Positions 4,818 to 59,398 of a stretch of 64,000 nt of DNA are shown in pieces. The notes beneath the pieces are model-generated. The model made no database searches. It saw only the letters and a program-made list of their open reading frames with translations, and was not told the origin of the DNA. The stretch is from Actinomycetota bacterium (GTDB lineage Bacteria > Actinomycetota > Thermoleophilia > BMS3ABIN01): positions 436-64,435 of the forward strand of contig JAMDDD010000009.1 of NCBI GenBank assembly GCA_023489275.1, written 5' to 3'. Every line of letters begins with the position of its first letter. Positions within the stretch are counted from its first letter, which is position 1. The position numbers and the translations under genes are program-made.

Positions 4818-5870
4818 ATGTCAAAAACAGAGTATAACGTCAAAACCATAGAGTGGCAGAGCGATGAGGTCGTGATGATTGACCAGCGGGTGCTGCCGCT
4901 TGATGAGAAGTACATTCATCACAAAACCTGGCAGGAAGTAGGGGATTCGATCAAGACGATGGTCATCCGCGGCGCGCCGGCGATCGGGGTCGCCACCGCC
5001 ATGGGCATGGCGCTCGCCGCCATGCAGTCTCCGGCCACGACATATGAAGCGCTGAAGCAGGATCTCGATGCCGCCGCCCAGGGATTGTTCATCACCAGGC
5101 CCACCGCCTATAACCTGGGCTGGGCCCTTCAGGAGCAGGCCAAAATTTATAACGAGCCTGGCGATCCCGACGATATCCGCCGCCGCCTCAAGGAGCGCTC
5201 CCAGGAGATTCTCGACGAGGACATCGCCATGTGCGTTGCCATTGGGGAGCACGGGGCGCCGCTCTTTCCCAAGGGAGCCCGCATCCTCACGCACTGCAAT
5301 GCGGGAGCGCTGGCGACGGCCGGCTACGGAACGGCGCTGGGCGTCATCCGGTCGGTATTCAAGCGGGACCCGAGCATCATGGTTTACGCCGACGAGACGC
5401 GGCCTTTTTTGCAGGGAGCCCGGCTGACCGCCTGGGAGCTGCAGCAGGAAGGCATCCCCTGCTGCCTGATTACGGACAATATGTCCGGCTACTTTTTTAA
5501 GAAGGGTGAAATCGACGCTGTCGTGGTCGGCTCGGACCGCATCGCTGCCAACGGGGATGTCGCCAACAAGATCGGGACTTACACCGTCTCGGTGCTGGCA
5601 AAAGCGCATGGCGCGCCTTTCTACGTTGCGGCGCCGACATCAACAGTGGACCTGAGCATTCCCCACGGCGATCACATTCCCATTGAAGAGCGAGATCCGG
5701 CAGAGGTTACCCACTTCCGGGAAGTGCAGTGCGCCCCCAGCGGCATCGACGTCTGCAATCCCGCTTTTGACGTGACCCCTCACGAGAACGTCAGCGCCAT
5801 TATCACTGAGGCCGGCGTACACCTGGAACCCTATTCGGAAAGCCTGGCCGCCGCGAAGAAAGGCAAATAA
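4818..5870 (+). CDS. mtnA: S-methyl-5-thioribose-1-phosphate isomerase (eIF-2B-like family)
   Basis: 350 aa, conserved GAPAIG and CNAGALAT and DRIAANGD motifs. Confidence 0.85.
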   Translation: MSKTEYNVKTIEWQSDEVVMIDQRVLPLDEKYIHHKTWQEVGDSIKTMVIRGAPAIGVATAMGMALAAMQSPATTYEALKQDLDAAAQGLFITRPTAYNLGWALQEQAKIYNEPGDPDDIRRRLKERSQEILDEDIAMCVAIGEHGAPLFPKGARILTHCNAGALATAGYGTALGVIRSVFKRDPSIMVYADETRPFLQGARLTAWELQQEGIPCCLITDNMSGYFFKKGEIDAVVVGSDRIAANGDVANKIGTYTVSVLAKAHGAPFYVAAPTSTVDLSIPHGDHIPIEERDPAEVTHFREVQCAPSGIDVCNPAFDVTPHENVSAIITEAGVHLEPYSESLAAAKKGK

Positions 5871-6989
5871 TTGAAGGCGATGGTACTCGCAGCCGGCCTG
5901 GGCACCCGCCTGAGGCCACTCACCGGCTCCATCTCCAAACCGATGGTGCCGATTGTCAACAGGCCGGTAATGTATCATATATTAAGTTTGGTCAAAAAAC
6001 ATGGATTTGACAAAGCTGTCGCCAATCTCCATTATCATCCGCACGCCATCACCAATTACTTTGGCCGGGGGCAGAATGTTGGCATCGAGCTTCGTTATTC
6101 GCTCGAGCCCAAGCTGCTGGGCACCGCCGGCGGCGTCAAGAATGTTGAGAACTTTCTTGGCGGCGGCAGCTTCCTGGTGATCAGCGGCGACGCCCTCACT
6201 GATCTTGATCTGACCAGGCTCGCCCGGCAGCACCAAGAGGCCGGCGGCATCGCTTCACTGGCGCTCAAACGGGTCAAGGACCCGAGCCGGTTCGGCGTTG
6301 TCATCCAGGGCGAGAACAACCGCATCGCCGGCTTTCAGGAAAAACCGCCTCCCGGGGAAGAGCTGAGCAATCTATGCAACTGCGGCATCTACATTTTCGA
6401 GCCGGAAATCTTTGATTACATCCCGGAGAAGAGTTTTTACGACTTTGGCAAGCAGGTCTTTCCCAATCTGGTCGCCAGGGGCGTTCCTTTCTACGGCTTC
6501 GAGATTGACGGTTACTGGAATGATGTCGGCAGTCTGGCCCAGTACCGCATCGGCAATTTCGACGCCCTTACCGGACAGGTCAAGGTGGAAATCCCCGGTG
6601 AAGAGATTCTTCCCGGCATCCATGTTGGCAAAGGCACCTACATCTCGAAGACCGCCAGGCTGGAGCCGCCGGTTCTCCTCGGCGACTACTGCCGGGTCGG
6701 TGAAGGGGCCAGCCTGATCGGGCCCCTCACCGTCGGTGATCACAGCGTCATTGAAGCCGGCGCTTCACTCGAAGGCGTGATTAAATGGCGGGCGGCCCAG
6801 ACCGGCGCCGGCGCCCAGGTAACCGGCGGCATCATTGGCACCGGGGCGCACATCCGGGATGATGTTCATATCGGCGACCGGGCTGTCGTGGGAGACCGGT
6901 GCGTCATCGGCGCCGGCAGCGTCATCGGCCCTGAGGTCAAGCTGGAGCCGTTTACCGTAATCGAGGCAGAAAGCCATATCGGAAACTAA
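5871..6989 (+). CDS. sugar-1-phosphate nucleotidyltransferase with C-terminal left-handed beta-helix (mannose-1-P guanylyltransferase-like)
   Basis: N-terminal MVLAAGLGTRLRPLT nucleotidyltransferase motif; hexapeptide repeats at C-terminus; TTG 5871 or ATG 5880 start. Confidence 0.8.
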   Translation: MKAMVLAAGLGTRLRPLTGSISKPMVPIVNRPVMYHILSLVKKHGFDKAVANLHYHPHAITNYFGRGQNVGIELRYSLEPKLLGTAGGVKNVENFLGGGSFLVISGDALTDLDLTRLARQHQEAGGIASLALKRVKDPSRFGVVIQGENNRIAGFQEKPPPGEELSNLCNCGIYIFEPEIFDYIPEKSFYDFGKQVFPNLVARGVPFYGFEIDGYWNDVGSLAQYRIGNFDALTGQVKVEIPGEEILPGIHVGKGTYISKTARLEPPVLLGDYCRVGEGASLIGPLTVGDHSVIEAGASLEGVIKWRAAQTGAGAQVTGGIIGTGAHIRDDVHIGDRAVVGDRCVIGAGSVIGPEVKLEPFTVIEAESHIGN

Positions 6990-11098: not shown

Positions 11099-12248
11099 TT
11101 GAGCAAACCGGCGCCGGTTCACACCATTGACGAGCTCGAGGACCTGCTCTCACAAGTGCGGGAAAAGTTCCAGTGGCTGGGTGATTACCTTTGACCCGGC
11201 GGCGCTGGAAAAGAAGTCCGCGCAGATCGTAACCCGCATGCAGCAGGAGGATTTCTGGTCCGATAAACCCGCCGCCGCCAGCTTAAGCGCCGATTACCGC
11301 CGCGCCAAACGGCGCCTGGAGCGTTACCGGCGCGCCGCGTCCGAGGTCGGCGATAGCGAAGCAATGGTGGAAATCGCCCGCGAGGCGGTCGCTTCCGGGG
11401 GACCGGAAGCTGAAACAGAATTCCTCGCCGAAACCCACGCGGCCCTTAAGGCAACTCTCAACCATCTGGAGCGCCTCGAAGAAGAGCGTCTCTTTAGCGG
11501 CAAGTACGATGACGGTGACGCCGTTCTTGTCATTCATCCTGGTGCGGGCGGCACTGAGTCGCAGGACTGGGCGGAAATGCTGCTGCGGATGTATCTGCGC
11601 TGGGCCGACCGGCGCGGCTTTAAGGCCGAAATCAATGAAGCCACCGCCGGTGACGAGGCTGGCCTTAAAAGCGCCACGGTGACCATCCACGGCGATAACG
11701 CCTACGGGCTGCTCTCATCCGAGCGCGGCGTTCACCGCCTGGTGCGGATCTCGCCCTTTGACGCGGCCAGCCGCCGCCATACCAGCTTTGCCGCCGTTGA
11801 AGTAAGCCCGCTGGTGGAGGAAGACGTCGAAATTGAGATTGACGACAAGGATTTGCGGATTGAAACCTACCGGGCCAGCGGCGCCGGCGGCCAGCACGTA
11901 AATAAGACCGATTCGGCGGTGCGTATCACTCATATGCCCACCGGGTTGGTGGCGCAATGCCAGAACGAGCGCTCGCAGCTCTCCAATAAAAATACTGCCA
12001 TGAAACTGCTGAAAGGCAAGCTGGTTGAGCTGAAGGAACGCGAGCGGGCGGCGGCAATGGAGAAGGAGCGCGGCGAGCTGGCCGAGATCGCCTGGGGCAG
12101 CCAGATCCGCTCCTACGTGCTGGCTCCCTACCAGATGATCAAGGACCACCGCACCAGTTATGAGACCGGAAATGCCCAGGCGGTGCTGGACGGCGACATT
12201 GACGCGTTCATCCACGCGTACCTGGTAAAGCGGGCGGGAAAGAAGTAG
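11099..12248 (+). CDS. prfB: peptide chain release factor 2 with programmed +1 frameshift (CTT TGA C at 11189-11195)
   Basis: Frame switches +1 at in-frame UGA 11192-11194 inside the canonical CUU UGA C shifty site; downstream frame has SPF and GGQ motifs (RASGAGGQHVNKT); TTG start at 11099. Confidence 0.9.
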
Positions 12249-12479
12249 AACCGGACTCCGGACACCGGACTCCGGGCTCTGGATTTAATCAAGCCGCAGA
12301 CTTCTTAACAGCCGGCATCTTAAGTGCAATCACGGTCTTTTCGCGGCATGGCTCACGAACAGCCGAGGGGACAGGGTCTTATGCTTTGCCGGTATTTCCG
12401 CTAGAATCATCTGATGTAAACTGTCGGTTGCCGGCGCTTTGACTTTCCTCGCCGGGTTGAACCTGTCATCGGGAGTGCC

Positions 12480-13352
12480 GTGTTAAGCATCGCCTTGCCA
12501 AAAGGAAGCCTGCAGGAGCAGACGCTGAAGCTGTTTGCGGAAGCCGACCTGCCTGTCAACCGCAGCGCCCGCGAGTATAGCGTCACCATCGACGACGAGC
12601 GGATCAGCGCGGTCAAAATCCTGAGGCCCCAGGAGATCCCCAAATATGTCGAAGAGGGATATTTTGACCTGGGCATCTCCGGGCTGGACTGCATCACGGA
12701 AGCGGGAGCCGACGTGGTGGAAGTGGCGGAGATGCCTTATGCCAAGACCGGCGCCGGCAAGATGAAGATGGTAATCGCCGTGCCGGAAGGCTCCAATATC
12801 GAACGGGCCGGCGACATCAAACCCGGCAGCCGCGTGACGACGGAGTTTCCCAACATTACCCGGAAGTTTTTTGATGATCTCGGCACCCGCGTGGACGTCT
12901 TTTATTCTTTCGGCGCCACCGAGGCCAAGGTGCCGGAAATAATGGACATCGTCGTTGATCTCACCGAGACCGGCTCCACCCTCAGGCGCAATAACCTGAA
13001 AATCATCGAAACGATCATGGAGTCAACGACCAGACTGATCGCAAATAAAGACTCGTGGGCCGATCAGGGCAAACGGCAGGCGATGGAAGAGGTCCGTACG
13101 CTGCTGCTGGGAGTGATCGACGCCCGCGGGCGGGTGCTGCTGTCAATGAATGTGGCCCGGGACAAGCTGGAAGACGTCGTCGGCGTCCTGCCGGCGATGA
13201 AGCGCCCCACGGTAGCGCCGCTATACAATTCCGATTATTTTGAAATCTCCACCGTTGTTGACAAAAGCTCGGTTAACGTTATCATTCCCCAGCTAAAAGC
13301 CAGCGGCGCTGAGGACATTCTCGAGCAGAACATCTCCAAGATCGTCCGCTAG
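12480..13352 (+). CDS. hisG: ATP phosphoribosyltransferase, long form
   Basis: N-terminus MLSIALPKGSL typical of HisG; 290 aa with C-terminal regulatory domain; GTG start. Confidence 0.85.
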   Translation: MLSIALPKGSLQEQTLKLFAEADLPVNRSAREYSVTIDDERISAVKILRPQEIPKYVEEGYFDLGISGLDCITEAGADVVEVAEMPYAKTGAGKMKMVIAVPEGSNIERAGDIKPGSRVTTEFPNITRKFFDDLGTRVDVFYSFGATEAKVPEIMDIVVDLTETGSTLRRNNLKIIETIMESTTRLIANKDSWADQGKRQAMEEVRTLLLGVIDARGRVLLSMNVARDKLEDVVGVLPAMKRPTVAPLYNSDYFEISTVVDKSSVNVIIPQLKASGAEDILEQNISKIVR

Positions 13353-50298: not shown

Positions 50299-50596
50299 AA
50301 TTTTCCTCAGCCTCTCCGGCTGGCGTGTCTGCCGGCCGGCTCCAGCGCCTTCGCCTGCTTTAGGAAGTTCCCCATAAATAGTCTACCAGTCTACCCTTTG
50401 GCGGTCACGAACAATTCCCGGACCATCGGCGCTTGCTGCGAGCATTCACGGCAAGCAAATATAGACCGTTTCTGGTTGCTTAAGCGTACCCGGCAATATG
50501 CCGATGTTCCCTCCGGAAGCGGTTTTTTTTCGGTTTTTCTCCCGGGGAGGAATACCGGCCCAGGGGTGCCTTCCAGGCCGGGGGCAAGGACAGCAA

Positions 50597-52153
50597 ATGA
50601 GCAAGGCGCATACGCATGAGGCCAGCATTGCGGGCAACGGGGCAATGCCTTCAGGTTCTGACGGCAACACCGTCAGCGTTTTCATCGCGATCCTTATCCT
50701 TGTTCCTGCCCTGGCGGTCACGCAGCTAGCGACCAATGACATCCAGGAAATCCAGGAAGTTCTATTCCTGGGATACTTCCTGCCGATCGCGATTGGTGCG
50801 CGTTACTTTAAGAGGCGGGGAGCCCTGATCTGCGGCGCGCTGGTAGTTGTCATATATACGGCAATCTTCATCCCCCGGCTGCTCACTCAATTTAATGTGC
50901 ATCAAGAACTGACGGTAGAGCTTTTCGGTCGCTTGTTCCTGTTCTCCGCCGCCGCCATATCCCTGAGTTCATTTCGGCTGGGTGTCTCGCGCGAGAAAGA
51001 AAAAGCATTGCTGGCGGAACGCGAAAGAGCTGACCGGCTGAAGATGATGCTGGACGTTTCCAATGCGGTTACATCTTCGCTTAAGATTGATCAGGTGCTG
51101 CAGCTGCTGGCGGTCAGGATTGTCGAAACTGTTGAGGCAACCTTTTGCCGGATATCATTGCTGAGCGAGGAGGGCGACCGGATGCGGGTCGTTGCGGCGG
51201 CGCCCGCACGCGAGCTGGATTGGGACGCTTGCACACGTAAATCTGTATCCCTGGCGGATTTGCCGGACCACCGTAAAACGATCGAGACAAAAGAAGCTGT
51301 GATCGTTGCGGGAAGACGAAAAGAGCCTTCACTTTCCCTGGGTCAGCTGGACGTCATGGGCGGAACCACTTCACTGCTCATTTACCCGCTGGTCGTCGGG
51401 GGAGAAGTGGTCGGCCTGGTAGAAATTGGCGAGCAAAGAAAATGGGAGCGAAGCCCGCTGAGCCAGGAAAAAGCGGATCTATGTCAGACGATCGTCAACG
51501 AGGGGGCGGTGGCCGTCGGGCACGCGCTTTCCCATAAAGAACTGGAAGACACCTTTGTGGGCACAATCCGGTCGCTGGCAGAGGCGATCGACGCCAAAGA
51601 CCCGTCGACCCGCGGCCATTCAGACTGGGTTTCAAAGTATGCAGTGATGCTGGGAAAGCAGCTTCATCTGGAGGAGCCGCGCCTGGAAGCACTCAAATAT
51701 GTCGGATACCTGCATGATGTGGGCAAGATTGGCGTTCCTGACTCAATCCTGGGAAAGAAAGGCCAGCTTACCCCCGAAGAGTGGAAGCTGATGAAAAAGC
51801 ATCCGATCACCAGCGCCAAGATTCTCGAGCCGGTCCGGATTTCTTCCTTAATCAAGGCCGCCATCCGCCACCATCATGAAAGATTCGACGGCAGGGGATA
51901 TCCCGATGGACTTGCCGGTGAATCGATTCCGCTGGAAGCGCGAATTATCGCGGTGGTCGATGCTTATGAAGCGATGACCTCGGATCGGCCTTACCGCAAG
52001 GCCCTCTCCGACGAGGAAGCCGTGGCTGAGCTCAAGCGGTGCTCGGGCACCCAGTTCGATCCCGCCTGCGTCGATGCTTTCCTGACGGCCCTGGGCCGGC
52101 TGCCGGATGCATTTAATGATCAGGCTGAAGACTATCCCGCCGTCGCCGGCTAG
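50597..52153 (+). CDS. membrane-anchored GAF + HD-GYP domain c-di-GMP phosphodiesterase-like protein
   Basis: HD motif YLHDVGKIGVPD and HHERFDGRGYPDGL (HD-GYP); N-terminal TM segments and GAF-like middle domain; track ORF starts 50498. Confidence 0.75.
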   Translation: MSKAHTHEASIAGNGAMPSGSDGNTVSVFIAILILVPALAVTQLATNDIQEIQEVLFLGYFLPIAIGARYFKRRGALICGALVVVIYTAIFIPRLLTQFNVHQELTVELFGRLFLFSAAAISLSSFRLGVSREKEKALLAERERADRLKMMLDVSNAVTSSLKIDQVLQLLAVRIVETVEATFCRISLLSEEGDRMRVVAAAPARELDWDACTRKSVSLADLPDHRKTIETKEAVIVAGRRKEPSLSLGQLDVMGGTTSLLIYPLVVGGEVVGLVEIGEQRKWERSPLSQEKADLCQTIVNEGAVAVGHALSHKELEDTFVGTIRSLAEAIDAKDPSTRGHSDWVSKYAVMLGKQLHLEEPRLEALKYVGYLHDVGKIGVPDSILGKKGQLTPEEWKLMKKHPITSAKILEPVRISSLIKAAIRHHHERFDGRGYPDGLAGESIPLEARIIAVVDAYEAMTSDRPYRKALSDEEAVAELKRCSGTQFDPACVDAFLTALGRLPDAFNDQAEDYPAVAG

Positions 52154-52169: not shown

Positions 52170-54110
52170 TCATCCCTGCTGCCTGTTGACTACCGCTTCC
52201 CGGCTGTTCTTTAGCAGTTTTAAAGAATGCAGGTAAAGCGGGCTCTTGCTGCTCCGGATGATGTCGGCGCCGCGCAAACTGGCAAGCAGTTCGGATGGCG
52301 TTTTAAACTGGTGCAGTGACAGCATCGCCGTGCCAACGCCCTGGGGTACATGGCAGTCGCTCCCCGCCCCTCCCGGAATGTCATATTTGAGCGCAAGCCG
52401 TTTTGCCTTTTCGTTAAATGACGTAAAAGTAATGCGAGGATTGTACACCTCGATGATGTCGATGTCGGCGGCATTGCTTGCCAGAAGCTTGTATGTCGGG
52501 GTCAGATGCAGCGGGTCGAACGGGTGGGGGACATAAACCAGTCCGCCCTGGTTCTTAATCTCCCTGATTGTTTCCTCGAAAGACAGGCCGCGGGGGATCT
52601 CCTCGGAAAGGTAGAGGCCGATAACCTCGCCACGTGTCGTCTTGATTTCCTCACCGATAATGACATGGATATGCGCGGGCGCTAAAGCGGCCACCGCCAG
52701 CGCGCCCTTGATCGTATTGTGGTCGGTGACGGCGATCGCTTCCAGACCGCACTCCTCACAGGCTGCCAGCAGCTCCTCGGGAGTGGTGGCGCAGTCGCTT
52801 GAGTAACAGGTATGGATGTGGAGGTCCGCCAGAATCATTTTGCTGCCGGTTTCCTGGATGGCCAGTTTCCCGGGGCGGTCCCGCCGGCGCTTGTGGGCTC
52901 GCCGGTAAATCCTTTCCACTTGTGTTGATATTTTTCCCCAGTCATGACGGCGTGCCCGGCGGGCGGCGGCGGCGCCCATGGACCGTCTATGCCGAGGATT
53001 AACCAATAAGTCAACCAGGTCAGCCGCCAGATTGTACGGGTAAGGGTGGTCAAGCAGGAGCCCTTCAAGGCCTTCGCTCACCAGCTCACGGAAACCGGCA
53101 TGAGCCGGCAGGATAACGCTGCTGCCCGAGGCCATCGCCTCCAGCACCGCGCTTGCCAGACTGGTGGCCGCGTACGGGGCGCAGAGAATCTCGCAGCGCC
53201 TGTATACGCCTGCCAGCCCGTCCGGCGGGATCGGGCCCTTAAACGATATCCGGTCGCGAAGGCGCCTGGGCACGATCAGATTGGCCCGCCAGGAAAGCTC
53301 TTCGCCGCCGGCAATGGCAAGCTCGAACCGGGGAATGTCGGTCGGGAGCATCCTGACCGCTCTCATGAGCAGCGCCAGACCCTTGCGAGGGTCTGTCCAG
53401 GCGGCAAAGATCACCAGCGGCGGCGCGGCCGGCCTTTCCTCTTCCTCGGGAAGAGAGAACCGGGAAAGGTCAATCCCCGTGGGAATAACGTCATAACCGG
53501 CCGGAAAGTAACCGGAAACGATCCTGCGCGTATTCTGCGAAGCGCAAATGCGGCCGTCCAGCCGCGAAAAAAACCGCTCGACGACCGGCCGCATCAGCTG
53601 GTAGCTGAGAAACCGCTCCCCGGAGGTATGGAAAGTCGCCACGGTGGGACACCTGGCCAGCCTCAGGCCGGCGAACGAAAGACTGGGGGGAAATGGCTCG
53701 TGCAGGTGGAGAATGTCAAACCGCTCCCGCGACAGGGTTTCCTCCATCTGATCGGTGACCTCCAGCGGCAGCGTCAGGTTCGCGAGCGAATCGCTGTAGG
53801 GCATCCGGAAAGTGCCGGAAATCCTGATCAGGCTCGCCCCCTCGACCTTGTCTCCGCCACGAGCGCGCTTTTCCGGCCCCCCCCTCCGGCCGGCCCCGGG
53901 CTTGCGCGCGGCGCGGCGCGCGGCTCTGGCTTTTTTTCTGGCGGCGCGCGCTTCCTCGCGCTCTTCGGCGGGGGCAATCACGGTAACGTCATGCCCCCGG
54001 GAGTCGAGCGATGAGGCCAGCCCCCTGACGTGACGGTTCACGCCCCAGACGGAGGTCCAGGGGTATGGCGTAACCAGCCCCACTTTAAGCTTTTCAGGGT
54101 CGCCGCTCAT
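52170..54110 (-). CDS. fusion protein: GT4 glycosyltransferase (N) + PHP-family phosphoesterase (C), with Arg/Ala-rich basic insert
   Basis: GT4 N-domain (KVGLVTPYPW...), GT1 C-domain (EAMASGSSVILPAHAGF), then PHP motifs ADLHIHTCYSSDC, AVTDHNT, YVPHPFD, GAGSDCH. Confidence 0.75.
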   Translation of the reverse strand: MSGDPEKLKVGLVTPYPWTSVWGVNRHVRGLASSLDSRGHDVTVIAPAEEREEARAARKKARAARRAARKPGAGRRGGPEKRARGGDKVEGASLIRISGTFRMPYSDSLANLTLPLEVTDQMEETLSRERFDILHLHEPFPPSLSFAGLRLARCPTVATFHTSGERFLSYQLMRPVVERFFSRLDGRICASQNTRRIVSGYFPAGYDVIPTGIDLSRFSLPEEEERPAAPPLVIFAAWTDPRKGLALLMRAVRMLPTDIPRFELAIAGGEELSWRANLIVPRRLRDRISFKGPIPPDGLAGVYRRCEILCAPYAATSLASAVLEAMASGSSVILPAHAGFRELVSEGLEGLLLDHPYPYNLAADLVDLLVNPRHRRSMGAAAARRARRHDWGKISTQVERIYRRAHKRRRDRPGKLAIQETGSKMILADLHIHTCYSSDCATTPEELLAACEECGLEAIAVTDHNTIKGALAVAALAPAHIHVIIGEEIKTTRGEVIGLYLSEEIPRGLSFEETIREIKNQGGLVYVPHPFDPLHLTPTYKLLASNAADIDIIEVYNPRITFTSFNEKAKRLALKYDIPGGAGSDCHVPQGVGTAMLSLHQFKTPSELLASLRGADIIRSSKSPLYLHSLKLLKNSREAVVNRQQG

Positions 54111-54303
54111 GCTTCACAGGTTAGTTAAAAGTCGTCAAGGTAGCAACAGGAAGGGCAACCAAAAAAAGCACGCCGACTCGCACTCGCCTTTGCCGCCAGC
54201 CAGCCAGTCCTGTCTTTCTTGATTTTCGCCGGATGCACCACAAAAAAGGGCCGCGGTCGGCGGCCCCTGGTTATCGGGAAGATAAGTTCCTGCTTCCCTT
54301 CTG

Positions 54304-54786
54304 TCATTTTTTCGCGGGAATCAGTAGTTGCGCTCCCGACAGAACGACAAGTACGCCGCCGGCGATAATGAAAAACCACGGCATTGTGCGCATCGGCAGC
54401 TGGTCGGCTTTCTGGAAGTTGTCAACGTTCTGATGCATGACGGTAACAACTGTGTTAAAATCCTTGCCCATCTTGTTCATCTGCTTGACGCCATTAGCAA
54501 TGCCCGGGAACTGCTGACCGATCATCTGATTCATCTGATCCGTGGTCATGTTCATTTGCTTGGCGAGCGCCGGGATCATCTTGTTGATGCCGTCCTGCAT
54601 GCCCGCGAATGTCCGCATGTACCCCTGGAACCTGGTGACATTTGGTTTGGTCAGCACCGGCTCAAAAGCTTTCATCATGTCGGCTCCTGCCGGCGCCCGG
54701 TCAAACATTTTATAACCGAATGGCGCCGCGATCAGTCCCAGACCGACAATAAGAATGATAACGGACAGTACCTTGCTGCTTGACAT
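54304..54786 (-). CDS. membrane protein with N- and C-terminal TM helices, unknown function
   Basis: 160 aa, Met/Gln-rich soluble middle; lies between MIPS and GT-PHP genes, same strand. Confidence 0.4.
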   Translation of the reverse strand: MSSSKVLSVIILIVGLGLIAAPFGYKMFDRAPAGADMMKAFEPVLTKPNVTRFQGYMRTFAGMQDGINKMIPALAKQMNMTTDQMNQMIGQQFPGIANGVKQMNKMGKDFNTVVTVMHQNVDNFQKADQLPMRTMPWFFIIAGGVLVVLSGAQLLIPAKK

Positions 54787-55021
54787 TCTGGCTCCTTTGG
54801 TTGTTTTTCCCGAAAAGAGAGTTACAAATGTAACTAACTCTTATTGGACATTATATTATTACGATAAGCCACAATGAAAGACCTTCCAAGGTTGGGGAGA
54901 TGACCGGGCAGCCGAAAGGAAGATTAATCCGGTTTGACCCATGGGAACGGAATACTGCCGCCGGGCGCGGAAAACGCCGCACCCAGCCTGCGGCCGTTGG
55001 TTGCTCCGGGCTTGCGCGGAG

Positions 55022-56113
55022 CTACTTCGACTTTGGCGCCGCTTTGCCGGCGATGAACTCCTCAGTCATGTTGCGGGCAATGTCGTCCGGATGCTGGATT
55101 GGCGGCGATTTCATGAAGTACGATGAGGGGCCCTCAAGCGTGCCGGAGATGCCGCGGTCCAGCGCCAGCTTGGCGCAGCGGACGGCGTCGATGACGATAC
55201 CGGCCGAGTTGGGTGAGTCGACGACCTCCAGCTTCAGCTCAATGTTGAGCGGGACATCGCCAAAGGAGCGGCCTTCCAGCCGGATGTAAGCCCATTTGCG
55301 GTCCTGCAGCCAGGCAACGTGATCGCTGGGACCGATGTGGACGTTGTCAGCGCCGATATCAAAGTCAAGCAGCGAGGTGACGGCGTTGGTCTTGGAAATC
55401 TTCTTGCTTTCGAGCCGTTCGCGCTCGAGCATGTTAAGAAAGTCGCTGTTGCCGCCCACGTTCAGCTGGCTGGTGCGCTCCAGCCGGACGCCGCGATCCT
55501 GCATGAGGCTGGCGAGAATGCGGTGAACGATCGTGGCTCCCACCTGGGATTTGATATCATCTCCGATAATTGGTAGTCCTTTTTCCTTAAAGCGCTGCTG
55601 CCAGTAGTCCTCCCGGCCGATAAAGACGGGGATGCAGTTGACCATGGCGCATCCCGCCGCCAGGATCTGCTCGGTATACCACTTGGTCGCTTCCTCGCTG
55701 CCGACGGGCAGATAGCTGACGACCACATCGGTTTGCGTTTCCTTGAGAATGCCGACGATGTCATCGGTCTTGCCGGGAGCCTTTTTGACAACCTGGGACA
55801 GGTATTTGCCGATGCCGTCGTGCGTCATTCCCCGCCCAACCTTGATGCCGGTGGCGGGCACGTCGGTGAATTTAACGGTGTTGTTGGGATGAGCAAAGAT
55901 GGCCTCCGACAGGTCCTTGCCGACCTTTCCCTGAACCACGTCAAAAGCAGCGACGAACTTGATGTTCTTGATGTGATAGCCGCCCAGATTGACGTGCATC
56001 AGGCCGGGCACCGTGTCGCCGGCCTTTGCTTTCTTGTAGTATTCGACCCCCTGGACGAAGGAAGAGGCGCAGTTTCCCACGCCGATAATCGCGACTCTGA
56101 CGTCATTGCTCAA
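55022..56113 (-). CDS. ino1: myo-inositol-3-phosphate synthase (bacterial/archaeal type)
   Basis: N-terminus [17 protein letters not shown]; ~364 aa; TTG start 8 nt after GGAGGTG (track ORF extends further upstream into the neighbouring gene). Confidence 0.85.
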
Positions 56114-56184
56114 GGCACTGACACCTCCGGATAGTAAACAAGAATTTGTAGATTCCGCCGGCGGCGGGCTGCCCCGCCGGTATT

Positions 56185-56886
56185 TCACTCTTTGTCGCCA
56201 GCCGGAGCTTCCGCTTCGAGGAACCGGCGCCGCACGTGCAGGATCCGCTGCAGCACCGTCACGGCTGTAAGCACCGCTAGAATATACACCACCAGCGGCA
56301 GCACGCCAAATTTCTGCAGCAGCAGGCCGGCAATGAGGAGCACCAGCCGCTCCGGCCGGGTCATCAGCCCTACCTTGCAGTCCAGCCCCAGGGCCTCGGC
56401 GCGGGCGCGGGTGTAGCTGACGAGGAAAGAACCGATCATGGTGGCAAAGGTGGCGCCGACAACCCACAGGTTGCCACCTCTGGCGTAAACCAGGGCGATC
56501 GATGTGAGCACTGCGCCTTCGCCGACGCGGTCAAAGGTCGAATCAAGAAAGGCGCCCATCGGCGTAACGCGCTCGGACAACCGCGCCAAAGCGCCGTCCA
56601 GCATATCGAAGATGCTGCCGATGGCAAAGACAATGGCCGCCGTCACGTAACGACCGGTCCACACCAGCGGCGCCACACCCAGGGTCAGGATAAGCCCGAA
56701 GACGGTGAGCAGATTTGGCGAGATGCTCGTGCGGCCGATGATGGCGGTAACGGGGCTAAACAGCCGCCGCGCCTCGGTGCTGTAATAGTACCTCAGCTTT
56801 TCGATGTAAGGCATGTCCCTCAAAAAAGTCTCTCCGGCCGCCGCCCGCACCTCCGCCGGCCCGGCCGCCTCGGCAGATTCTAACAC
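56185..56886 (-). CDS. CDP-alcohol phosphatidyltransferase (phosphatidylinositol-phosphate synthase-like)
   Basis: Family motif D-x2-DG-x2-AR...G-x3-D-x3-D ([32 protein letters not shown]); start may be ATG 56814. Confidence 0.8.
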
Positions 56887-57076: not shown

Positions 57077-57841
57077 TCAGGAGACAGCGCGGCGGTAAAC
57101 CCGCGTGGCCCAGACAACGGCCAGCGCCGTCAATGGCACCATCACCAGGAAGCCCTCGGCGATGGTGGTGTTCCACAGATGGCCGGCAGCCAGGAGCCTG
57201 TCGCCCTCCACGACATAATACAGGGGATTGAAGTGCCCGATCACGCGCATCCAGGCAGGGCCCAGCTCCAGCGGCAGCAAGATGCCCGCCAGCAGCAGGA
57301 GCGGCAGGTTGATGCCGTTGACCACGGCAGCAAAACTGTTGATCTCCTTGGTGAGCAGCGCTACGGCTATGGAGAAGGAAGCAAACAGCACCATCAGCAG
57401 CGCCAGTAAAACGTAAGCAATCAGCAAACCGGCGATATGGATGGGAAAGCCAAAGGGCTCCGCCACGACGACAATCATGGTCATAAAGAAAAAGGTCCAT
57501 GTCAGACTCGACAGGATCGGGCCGATCAGCAACGCCAGGCGGCTTGCCGGCGTGACCCGGATCCGTTCGGTGTAGCCGGCCTGCAACTCAAAGATGGTGG
57601 AAAAGCCGGCGCTGGCGCCGCTCATAAAAGCCATCAGCGCCAGAATGCCGGGCAGGAAGATTTCCAGAACGTTGATGCCTGGTGGAAATTCGGACCCTCC
57701 CGGCAGGGACTTAAGCAGCGGCGTAAACAGCGCCAGATAAAGCAGCGGCGTCGAGAAGCTGATCGCCAGCCAAACCGGTACCCGGAACGTCTGGACGAAG
57801 CTGCGCCGGTAAAGCAGGGCGATGTCCCTCAGCGTTTTCAT
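57077..57841 (-). CDS. ABC-2 type transporter permease
   Basis: 254 aa, 6 TM, overlaps ATPase stop. Confidence 0.7.
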   Translation of the reverse strand: MKTLRDIALLYRRSFVQTFRVPVWLAISFSTPLLYLALFTPLLKSLPGGSEFPPGINVLEIFLPGILALMAFMSGASAGFSTIFELQAGYTERIRVTPASRLALLIGPILSSLTWTFFFMTMIVVVAEPFGFPIHIAGLLIAYVLLALLMVLFASFSIAVALLTKEINSFAAVVNGINLPLLLLAGILLPLELGPAWMRVIGHFNPLYYVVEGDRLLAAGHLWNTTIAEGFLVMVPLTALAVVWATRVYRRAVS

Positions 57842-58839
57842 TGCGGATCCTTCCCACCCGGCGGCTGGCCGGCGTCACGAAGGGATCTGCCCGTATAGCG
57901 CAGGAAGACATCGTCCAGCGTGGGCTCGGAAAGCGTGACCGTCTTAATGGTCATGCCGTTCTGGTCCAGCAACCGCAGGATTCGGGGCAGCGCCGTGACG
58001 CCGTCATCGACGTAAAGGCGCAGGTGATCGGATTCGGCGCTCACCTCTCGCACGAAATCCTGCTCTTGCAGGAGCCTCATTGCCCCCTCGGGCCCGGCGC
58101 CGTCGTCCTGGAGGCTGACGACAACGCTGTCGGCGGCAATTTGCTGTTTTAGCTGCCTGGAAGTGCCCTCGGCCACCAGCTGGCCGTGGTCCATGATCGC
58201 GAGGCGGTTGGAGAGGGCGTCCGCTTCTTCCAGGTAGTGTGTGGTCAGAAAAATTGTCGTGCCGGCCTCGCGCAGCTTGCTGATCTGCACCCACAGGTTG
58301 GCCCGGTTCTGCGGATCGAGGCCGGTAGTGGGCTCGTCCAGGAAGAGCACGTCCGGCCGGTGCATGATGCCCAGGGCGATATCCAGGCGCCGCCGCTGCC
58401 CGCCCGAATATGATTGAACCCTTCTTGACGCAAACTCCGCCAGGTCGAGCACTTCAATCAATTCGTCGGCCCGCCGCTCCGCTTCCCGCCGGCCCATACC
58501 GTAAAGCTCTCCCTGCAGGAGCAGGTCTTCCCGGCCGGTGGCGAGCCGGTCGCTGCCGCCGAGCTGGCTGACATAACCGATGCGCTGGCGCACTTGATGC
58601 GGGCTCTTGTGAACGTCAAATCCCGAGACCACCGCCCGGCCGCTTTCAATCGGCAGCAGCGTCGAGAGCATGCGGAGCGTGGTTGTCTTGCCGGCGCCGT
58701 TGGGACCCAGGAAGCCGAAGATCTCACCCGGCCAGATCTCCATGTCGATGCCGCGCACCGCCTCGATCTTTTCCTTGCGGGTCCGAAAAGTCTTGGTGAG
58801 GTCATGCGCCTCCAGCACCGGTTGTCCATTTGTGTTCAT
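57838..58839 (-). CDS. ABC transporter ATP-binding protein (DrrA-like, with C-terminal accessory domain)
   Basis: Walker A GPNGAGKTT, signature YSGGQRRRLDIALG, Walker B LFLDEPTTGLD. Confidence 0.85.
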   Translation of the reverse strand: MNTNGQPVLEAHDLTKTFRTRKEKIEAVRGIDMEIWPGEIFGFLGPNGAGKTTTLRMLSTLLPIESGRAVVSGFDVHKSPHQVRQRIGYVSQLGGSDRLATGREDLLLQGELYGMGRREAERRADELIEVLDLAEFASRRVQSYSGGQRRRLDIALGIMHRPDVLFLDEPTTGLDPQNRANLWVQISKLREAGTTIFLTTHYLEEADALSNRLAIMDHGQLVAEGTSRQLKQQIAADSVVVSLQDDGAGPEGAMRLLQEQDFVREVSAESDHLRLYVDDGVTALPRILRLLDQNGMTIKTVTLSEPTLDDVFLRYTGRSLRDAGQPPGGKDPQ

Positions 58840-58918: not shown

Positions 58919-59398
58919 GTGTCAAGCCGGGATAAACCGTTTCAAAATTTGCGCATCGGACCGGCGGCCAGCACGCGATCGATCCTGTTCCATCAGGCTG
59001 TCGCGGATAAACTCGGCCTTAATCCTACCGATCATAAAATCCTGCTTTTTCTGTTCGACCGCCCCCGGGCCGCAGGCGAGCTGGCCCATCTTACCGGTCT
59101 TACCACTGGCGCGATGACGGCGGTAATTGACCGGCTGGAAAAAGCAGGCTATGTCCGCCGGGTTCACGACATGGAAGACCGGCGCCGCATCTACGTGGAG
59201 ATAATCCCTGAAAACGCAGCCAGAATTGTGGACCTGTTCCGGCCCCTGAGCCGGGCGATGGCGAAGCTGGAGTCAGGTTACTCGCCGGCGGAGCTGGATC
59301 TGATCCACGATTACCTCGAGCGCGCCGGCGAGGTGCTGTACCGGGAGACGCAAAGGCTGAGCCGGGTCAAGCCAGAGCCGCCGCTAAAATCCAAATAA
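58919..59398 (+). CDS. MarR-family transcriptional regulator
   Basis: wHTH core GELAHLTGLTTGAMTAVIDRLEKAGYVRR; divergent from the ABC operon across an AT-rich 80-bp spacer; GTG start. Confidence 0.8.
   Translation: MSSRDKPFQNLRIGPAASTRSILFHQAVADKLGLNPTDHKILLFLFDRPRAAGELAHLTGLTTGAMTAVIDRLEKAGYVRRVHDMEDRRRIYVEIIPENAARIVDLFRPLSRAMAKLESGYSPAELDLIHDYLERAGEVLYRETQRLSRVKPEPPLKSK

Follow-up and report, generated by a model that had tools for sequence, protein, structure and literature searches.

A PimA-related fold fused to a PHP phosphoesterase in the inositol-lipid locus of Thermoleophilia: a candidate phosphatidylinositol-phosphate phosphatase

When a 64,000-nucleotide stretch of contig JAMDDD010000009.1 (called the window here), from an Actinomycetota bacterium of the class Thermoleophilia, was read for open reading frames (ORFs), four co-oriented genes were seen on the minus strand between positions 52170 and 56886. 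A first-pass annotation made from the sequence had described the same four genes. They encode a CDP-alcohol phosphatidyltransferase of the phosphatidylinositol-phosphate (PIP) synthase type (called PIPS here), a myo-inositol-3-phosphate synthase (MIPS), a membrane protein of 160 amino acids (aa) and a 646-aa protein that joins a GT4 glycosyltransferase (GT) to a PHP phosphoesterase. This last protein, the fusion, is the subject of our analysis. The proteins of the window were searched against the Pfam and NCBIfam profile libraries. The PIPS (56185–56886, minus strand) matched PF01066 with 74 bits, and the motif DX2DGX2AR...GX3DX3D, including GAFLDSTFD, can be read in its translation. Its best NCBIfam matches were archaetidylinositol-phosphate (AIP) synthase (NF040950, 160 bits, cut-off 180) and PIP synthase (NF045883, 147 bits, cut-off 170); both are below the cut-off, and the protein is described here as being of the PIP/AIP-synthase type. 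The MIPS (55022–56113, minus strand) matched TIGR03450 over the full length of the model with 543 bits (equivalog cut-off 638), the match covering residues 123–472 of a long ORF at 55022–56467. It also matched the Pfam family Inos-1-P_synth (PF01658) with 117 bits (cut-off 27). The start codon of MIPS is most likely the TTG at 56113, which has a ribosome-binding site (GGAGG, 56128–56124) upstream; the protein then has 363 aa rather than 481.

The fusion gene occupies 52170–54110 on the minus strand. As the first-pass annotation had anticipated, Pfam matched both halves of a GT4 enzyme and both parts of a PHP domain in its product: Glyco_transf_4 at residues 23–217 (91 bits), Glycos_transf_1 at 221–384 (78 bits), PHP (PF02811) at 429–492 (47.1 bits, cut-off 26.4) and PHP_C (PF13263) at 565–613 (46.6 bits, cut-off 21.3). 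The closest homologue of the fusion is 98% identical, and homologues with 60–69% identity come from metagenome-assembled genomes of Thermoleophilia. A full-length AlphaFold2 model of the window protein, built on 40 homologues, had a pLDDT of 87.3 and a pTM of 0.86. The model predicts a compact packing of both halves into a single unit. The architecture of the protein is certain.

The N-terminal module (aa 1–410; 52881–54110, minus strand) has a GT-B fold and is a relative of PimA, the GDP-mannose-dependent phosphatidylinositol (PI) α-(1-2)-mannosyltransferase. When the Protein Data Bank (PDB) was searched with phmmer, the PimA entries 4n9w and 2gej (from M. smegmatis) were matched over residues 8–49 and 102–404 with an E-value of 8e-43 and 150 bits. 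MshA reached 55 bits, over the C-terminal half only. Foldseek also ranked two PimA structures first, with TM values, normalized to the target, of 0.79–0.81, and MshA was the second-best structural neighbor. The relationship to PimA favors a lipid-directed role for the protein. The first-pass annotation had raised an MshA or MshA2 identity as an alternative. We rejected it on the PimA comparison and on the score of the MshA equivalog model TIGR03449, which aligned to residues 206–406 only and gave 67.2 bits against a cut-off of 462.5.

The window protein and PimA were placed in one alignment with 147 homologues of fusion length, from which we read out the PimA positions Y9, Q18, Y62, N63, R68, H118, R196, E199, R201 and E274, plus G16, K202 and E282. 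The scored residues were chosen as being GDP-mannose-binding or absolutely critical for PimA activity; R196 and E274 are reported to be among the absolutely critical ones, and R201 was docked next to O3 of the inositol (PMC9202250). The window protein and its clade at 60–70% identity carry the changes R196A, E274S/T/A/P, G15W, R68N, N63S and Q18N (PimA numbering). The window protein itself has E274T and an aspartate at position 199. Retained in this clade are Y9, G16, Y62, H118, D/E199, R201, K202 and E282, and the window protein keeps the HEPxxPS and FHT motifs. The Solirubrobacterales/Thermoleophilaceae clade, at 36–40% identity, shows G16E/D, R196I/V/S, K202P/G/A, E274A/L/R and E282R, and retains H118, E199, R201 and Y/F9. 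All five of the donor and catalytic residues G16, R196, K202, E274 and E282 are therefore gone in the Solirubrobacterales-type relatives, and the window protein lacks R196 and E274. The acceptor-side residues H118, E199 and R201 are conserved in the whole family. The acceptor side of PimA also includes Y9, Q18, Y62, N63 and R68; of these the window protein keeps Y9 and Y62 and differs at the other three. The EX7E and RKG motifs are still canonical in one relative at 41% identity (P0055), a sign of descent from an active GT, and standalone PimA homologues from other phyla retain every motif.

The regions of the fusion differ in conservation. When the window protein is compared with the Solirubrobacterales clade, the PHP domain reaches 56% identity and the GT N-domain 40%; the GT C-domain has 23%, and an inserted segment described below has 15%. 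The PHP domain is the most conserved and the GT C-domain the least conserved folded region. From these patterns, selection would appear to have kept the PHP domain and, in the GT cleft, the acceptor side, not glycosyl transfer, and the GT module of the window protein is likely to be inactive. The claim of the first-pass annotation that this half is an active, next-step glycosyltransferase is thus doubtful: R196 and E274 are missing from the window protein, and most relatives lack G16, K202 and E282 as well.

The GT module carries an insert rich in Arg and Ala (aa 50–101; 53808–53963, minus strand), which the first-pass annotation had pointed out and which our alignments to PimA bear out. It amounts to approximately 50 residues, with aa 50–101 aligned to residues 47–62 of PimA. 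In the AlphaFold2 model it forms a predicted helix at 51–69 followed by a disordered basic stretch. It is conserved in the close clade (38% identity), and R58 is invariant in a 17-sequence alignment and nearly so in a 40-sequence alignment. The basic amphipathic α2 helix with which PimA binds membranes (HRKVKKW, with R77, K78, K80 and K81) aligns to an acidic segment of the fusion, TDQMEETLSRE, and the basic insert lies one element earlier. At its other end the protein closes with a C-terminal helix (aa 621–646, SPLYLHSLKLLKN...; 52173–52250, minus strand), predicted for residues 624–645. Y626 and K631 are invariant there, and relatives add a basic tail. Standalone PHP homologues have a comparable C-terminal helix.

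The PHP phosphoesterase domain comprises residues 425–620 (52251–52838, minus strand) and has the (β/α)7-barrel fold of PHP proteins. The four PHP motifs noted in the first pass can be read in the translation as DLHIHT, VTDHN, VPHPFD and GSDCH. We scored twelve His, Asp and Glu residues: D429, H431, H433, D439, D463, H464, E488, H529, D532, H535, D585 and H587. All twelve are invariant in essentially all Thermoleophilia fusions (approximately 130), so that the loss of metal-binding residues that would have spoken against the candidacy is not seen. The metal ligands among them are predicted from the PHP motifs. The nearest solved PHP structures, with their listed values, were 3e38 (13.5), TM0559 (12.9), RNase AM (12.0), BAD_1165 (11.5) and EndoQ (11.0). 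There is no lipid phosphatase among them, and the fold therefore does not reveal the substrate. Among the NCBIfam profiles the fusion gave weak matches to RNase RNM and to 3′,5′-bisphosphate nucleotidase. The PgpA family was not matched in Pfam at E≤0.01 or among the best 25 of 38 NCBIfam matches. If the fusion is a PIP phosphatase, it is consequently one that is not homologous to PgpA.

With one genome scanned per species, relatives of the fusion were detected in at least 593 species genomes. The best 80 loci were kept, and those of them that are named to class are all from Thermoleophilia; deeper fusion clades are found at 30–46% identity. With relatives in so many species genomes, the joining of GT4 and PHP is not a chance juxtaposition, and the fusion is ancient and widespread. 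Proteins encoded in the window served as queries against the flanks of the relative loci. At least 6 kb of upstream flank is available in 62 Thermoleophilia loci, and every one of these carries PIPS and MIPS there, on the strand of the fusion; in 46 the end of MIPS is no more than 300 nt away from the fusion. The same order, PIPS, MIPS and fusion, is seen in three deeper clades, namely Gaiellaceae, a 705-aa type (P0125) and a 601-aa type (P0132). A survey for co-occurrence with the inositol genes had been suggested in the first pass, and its outcome agrees with the expectation. Two further genes, neither of them considered in the first pass, accompany the cluster in relatives. A PAP2_3 gene precedes PIPS in 52 of the 62 loci, as well as in Gaiellaceae and the P0132 clade; its coordinates overlap those of PIPS in some loci, for example L001, where it occupies 5629–6426. 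The available flank of the other 10 loci did not show it, and it turned up neither around the fusion genes of the window clade nor anywhere in the 64-kb window. Directly downstream of the fusion there is a UDG-like gene in 71 of 74 relatives, and the exceptions belong only to the window clade. In L001 this UDG-superfamily gene (11920–12573) overlaps the fusion by coordinates.

Some entries of the scan have odd layouts. In P0161, P0146, P0179, P0211 and others, Pfam shows PHP only or apparently chimeric fragments. P0127 is an apparently standalone PHP, 70% identical to the domain of the window protein, on a contig of 843 nt; it is possibly a fragment.

The coupling of a PHP protein to PimA is also seen outside the fusion. 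On a 2.28-Mb contig from Dehalococcoidia, a gene for a 250-aa PHP+PHP_C protein (L091, 9252–10004) has a stop codon that overlaps the start of a canonical pimA, and PIPS follows directly. This PHP protein is 34% identical to the PHP domain of the window protein (E-value 5e-24). Its main motif positions are intact, with an Asn at the position of D532. A metagenome scan gave 10 close relatives of it with 53–87% identity; together the operon loci are L091 and L093–L102. The pimA gene is immediately downstream in all ten, and PIPS comes next in all five contigs that are long enough. As the PimA of this operon is canonical, the operon spells out a PIP synthase, a phosphoesterase and a PI-consuming transferase, which matches the three-step logic of the pathway with its missing middle enzyme. 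Another lineage has MIPS-pimA-PIPS without PHP. A further protein of 646 aa (P0189; L090, 8001–9941), encoded beside parA/parB, is a canonical PimA fused to a C-terminal CDP-alcohol phosphatidyltransferase of the PIP-synthase type, and is another Rosetta-stone fusion of the same pathway. The standalone PHP+PHP_C subfamily is abundant, with 4363 matches at E≤1e-10.

Since the donor site of the GT half is decayed and the PHP domain is intact, the fusion is better read as a phosphatase with a PimA-derived binding module than as a two-step enzyme. We lean, by a little, towards the 646-aa protein being a membrane-peripheral PIP (PI-3-P) phosphatase that completes PI synthesis in Thermoleophilia, with the PimA-derived module binding the head group. 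In such a pathway MIPS would supply inositol-3-phosphate, and the PIPS-type transferase would join it to CDP-diacylglycerol, giving PIP. The C-terminal PHP metal center would then hydrolyze the inositol 3-phosphate monoester of PIP to leave PI. The N-terminal PimA-descended module, which would have kept the GT-B fold and the acceptor cleft (H118, E/D199, R201 and Y9) and lost residues needed for the binding and transfer of GDP-mannose, would recognize the inositol-phosphate head group and hold the enzyme at the membrane, with the basic insert and the C-terminal helix assisting. More tentatively, and a little short of an even chance in our judgment, we suggest a PimA-derived pseudo-glycosyltransferase that has been repurposed for head-group recognition and membrane docking and presents PI-3-P to a multi-metal PHP phosphatase. 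The first-pass annotation had proposed the PIP-phosphatase role by guilt by association. That proposal has gained strength from the invariant PHP residues, the linkage to PIPS and MIPS in all 62 loci and the PHP-pimA-PIPS operon of Dehalococcoidia.

Several observations weigh against this assignment. Among the nearest PHP proteins of solved structure, those that are characterized have nucleotide or nucleic-acid substrates (RNase AM, EndoQ and Pol III PHP), and we know of no PHP lipid phosphatase. The closest standalone PHP homologues, at 45–50% identity and mostly from Chloroflexota, were not inositol-linked in three contexts. In two of these the order is xseA-xseB-PHP (L084 and L085, 7001–7672), with PHP overlapping xseB by coordinates, and in the third (L082, 4753–7714) it is UbiA-LPG_synthase_TM-PHP. 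The Chloroflexota contexts modestly favor a nucleotide or nucleic-acid substrate, and so do the weak NCBIfam matches to RNase RNM and the bisphosphate nucleotidase, the frequent UDG-like neighbor, which is nearer to the fusion than MIPS in nine loci, and the Arg-rich insert and basic tails, which could bind nucleic acid. The PHP domain might on this account be a DNA-repair phosphoesterase that works with the UDG-like neighbor, or a nucleotidase of pAp or GDP type accessory to PimA, for which Rv2609c of the mycobacterial pimA operon, with its Nudix domain, offers a parallel. This reading seems improbable to us. The domain is fused to a lipid enzyme, and the linkage to PIPS and MIPS is without exception in the loci compared. 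A role on the donor or product nucleotide makes little sense once the GDP-mannose site is gone. The UDG-like protein has IKHHAL in place of the family-4 motif GEAPG and scores far below the family cut-offs; we take it for a divergent protein of the UDG fold and gave this neighbor little weight as evidence of DNA repair; the window clade lacks it altogether. The Dehalococcoidia PHP, too, is tied to pimA and PIPS, not to repair genes. The window protein also retains G16, R201, K202 and E282, along with its HEPxxPS and FHT motifs, and this is compatible with a residual or altered GT activity. A bifunctional enzyme, in which PHP converts PIP to PI and the GT4 half then glycosylates PI to a product of the phosphatidylinositol mannoside (PIM1) type, would suit these residues, the active ancestor suggested by P0055 and Pfam scores of both GT4 halves well over the threshold. 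PI and PIM have also been reported in Solirubrobacter by thin-layer chromatography (PMC10722151). We regard the bifunctional enzyme as unlikely all the same. R196A and E274T affect two residues reported to be absolutely critical in PimA, and R68N, N63S and Q18N change three more of those scored (PMC9202250). With the donor site destroyed in Solirubrobacterales and PHP invariant, glycosyl transfer is not the conserved function of the family, and the low identity of the GT C-domain points the same way.

The PAP2_3 gene, which abuts PIPS in most relatives, raises a different objection, as its product could itself be the PIP phosphatase. The fusion would then act on another phosphorylated head group, or regulate or scaffold the pathway. 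Lipid phosphate phosphatases, PgpB for example, belong to the PAP2 superfamily, and the gene keeps its place before PIPS in the Gaiellaceae and P0132 clades as well. A non-catalytic role for the fusion is made possible by some distant fusion clades in which the PHP domain is degenerate and the HxH motif is lost; the architecture can thus persist without PHP catalysis. Seven such proteins of approximately 590–607 aa (P0162, P0175, P0176, P0180, P0190, P0214 and P0246) have a GT-like plus PHP-like layout in which the HxH and DxH of PHP are gone. The position of PimA E274 is still acidic in them, as is that of E282 in the majority. They may be pseudo-enzymes degenerate in both halves, or they may serve another function. 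As for the PAP2_3 protein, its subfamily profile scored 133 bits and its sole NCBIfam match, a weak one, was to phosphoinositol-dihydroceramide synthase. By these matches it looks like a PI-consuming head-group transferase of the Aur1/BT_1522 type rather than a phosphatase. It may take inositol phosphate off PI and pass it on to a different lipid; that would be a hint of additional, uncharacterized inositol lipids in Thermoleophilia. The gene was not found in the flank of 10 of the 62 loci or in the window clade, where PIPS, MIPS and the fusion persist, and no PAP2 homologue was detected within the window. We therefore set aside a plain lipid phosphatase and keep the PAP2_3 explanation as a rival of low weight, of slight probability in our view. 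Least probable to us, and only barely to be reckoned with, is a soluble substrate. The fusion would then be an inositol-3-phosphate phosphatase (an IMPase analogue) or, as an MshA/MshA2-like enzyme, a glycosyl-inositol-phosphate synthase with its phosphatase attached. In favor of this, the fusion gene lies next to MIPS, compatible-solute pathways often have a synthase fused to a phosphatase, MshA2 is named in mycothiol papers and is not known to have been assigned, and MshA is the structural neighbor that follows PimA. PimA is, however, approximately three times closer than MshA by bit score, and the MshA model covers the C-terminal half only, at a small fraction of its cut-off. With a decayed donor site no glycosyl-inositol-phosphate would be made, nor does the pathway call for free inositol, given that the substrate of PIPS is inositol phosphate itself. 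In Dehalococcoidia, in addition, the operon ties PHP to pimA and PIPS, not to MIPS. Taking all the observations together, we find a PHP domain that serves as the PIP phosphatase of Thermoleophilia, with a PimA-derived docking half, to be the most economical explanation, and we hold it with a slight preference.

The fusion can be compared with several known systems. With PimA (2GEJ and 4N9W) it shares the GT-B fold, the best match in both sequence and structure, the HEPxxPS and FHT motifs, and Y9, Y62, H118 and R201. In Actinobacteria pimA lies in an operon with the PIP synthase, and the fusion locus is similar in this respect. The fusion differs from PimA by R196A, E274T, G15W, R68N, N63S and Q18N, and most of its relatives have lost the entire donor site; it also has an acidic α2, a basic insert of approximately 50 aa elsewhere and PHP at the C-terminus. 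The conversion of PIP to PI, the reaction proposed here for the fusion, was assigned in 2022 to the PgpA-like protein BT_1525 of Bacteroides thetaiotaomicron, the enzyme being unknown elsewhere; a BT_1525 knockout accumulates PIP (Heaver et al., PMC9246714). BT_1525 likewise lies in a MIPS/PIPS cluster. It differs in belonging to the PgpA membrane phosphatase family, in having no GT-like module and in being backed by a knockout. For mycobacteria, a preprint of July 2026 calls the PIP phosphatase "as-yet unidentified" and "long-sought" (bioRxiv 10.64898/2026.07.15.738315). The statement in the first-pass annotation that no gene had been assigned to this step accordingly holds for Actinobacteria and no longer for Bacteroides. 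The one current proposal, made in the same preprint, is EphE (Rv3670), an α/β-hydrolase without the usual nucleophile, in complex with PimA through the LemA-like protein ML0451c/Rv2609c; the evidence for the EphE-PimA complex is an AlphaFold3 prediction and a mutant with reduced PIM (bioRxiv 10.64898/2026.07.15.738315). In both the EphE system and the fusion a phosphatase is proposed to associate with PimA, and in the fusion the association is covalent. The α/β-hydrolase is, however, unrelated to the PHP fold, and PimA is catalytically active there. PHP proteins of the TrpH/RNase AM type (V. cholerae RNase AM, 9ETK; BAD_1165, 3O0F; TM0559, 2ANU; and 3E38) are 19–25% identical to the PHP domain of the fusion. 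The substrates of the characterized members are RNA 5′ ends or nucleoside bisphosphates, and in no case is there a fused GT-B module or a link to lipid genes. The Dehalococcoidia operon shares with the fusion locus the coupling of PHP+PHP_C to PimA and PIPS. It differs in that the genes are separate with overlapping ends, the PimA motifs are canonical, the identity of the PHP protein to that of the fusion is low and MIPS is not adjacent. Full-text searches of the literature turned up no publication that connects PHP enzymes with PI synthesis or with glycosyltransferases.

The PIP-phosphatase step has reportedly been open since the bacterial PI pathway was revised in 2010, and the locus gives a concrete, clonable candidate for it. 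Two independent genomic couplings stand behind the candidate, one being the fusion in its many species genomes and the other the PHP-pimA-PIPS operon in a second phylum. With some reserve, since we would put it below an even chance, the pseudo-GT fusion could be the PIP phosphatase of a whole class of Actinomycetota, non-homologous to both the PgpA-like enzyme and EphE, and PI-phosphate the first lipid substrate of a PHP enzyme. If this proves true, it would be a third, non-homologous solution to the PIP-to-PI reaction and would extend the PHP superfamily to a lipid substrate. It would also be a clear case of a GT fold retained as a substrate-binding pseudo-enzyme, and would lend Rosetta-stone support to a PIP phosphatase that works in contact with PimA. 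In Dehalococcoidia the same partnership would then be one between two proteins, a PHP protein and an active PimA. Mycobacteria do not have the fusion, which limits its direct medical relevance.

The remaining features of the locus surround these genes. The small membrane protein (160 aa; 54304–54786, minus strand) is encoded between MIPS and the fusion. It has hydrophobic segments at its N- and C-termini and a helical middle rich in Met, Gln and Asn. It matched no Pfam or NCBIfam family, and Pfam at E≤10 gave chance-level matches only (best E 0.041). Its homologues are confined to the closest clade (the window, L002 and L028) and are not present in L003 or in farther loci. By analogy with ML0451c, it might parallel the LemA-like scaffold that the 2026 preprint places beside PimA; the Pfam search at E≤10 returned nothing above chance level for a LemA-like identity either. 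Between the small gene and the fusion gene, a consensus scan, the sole basis of these calls, marked a strong terminator-like hairpin of 9 pairs, among them 7 G-C, with a T run behind it (54246–54268, minus strand) and a promoter-like site upstream of the fusion gene (54279–54307, minus strand). Given these two elements, the four genes may not be one transcript, and the fusion gene may be transcribed apart from PIPS and MIPS, or attenuated.

Directly upstream of PIPS there is a DrrAB-like pair identified by Pfam, an ABC-2 permease and its ATPase (57077–58839, minus strand). The pair also adjoins the cluster in L028 and is nearby in L002 and L088. It might be a lipid exporter. Beyond it lies a divergent ORF on the plus strand (58919–59398) that resembles a MarR-type regulator by eye. 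On the other side of the cluster, a gene on the plus strand for a membrane-anchored protein with GAF and HD-GYP (HD_5) domains (50498–52153) converges on the fusion gene, and the stop codons of the two genes are separated by 16 nt.

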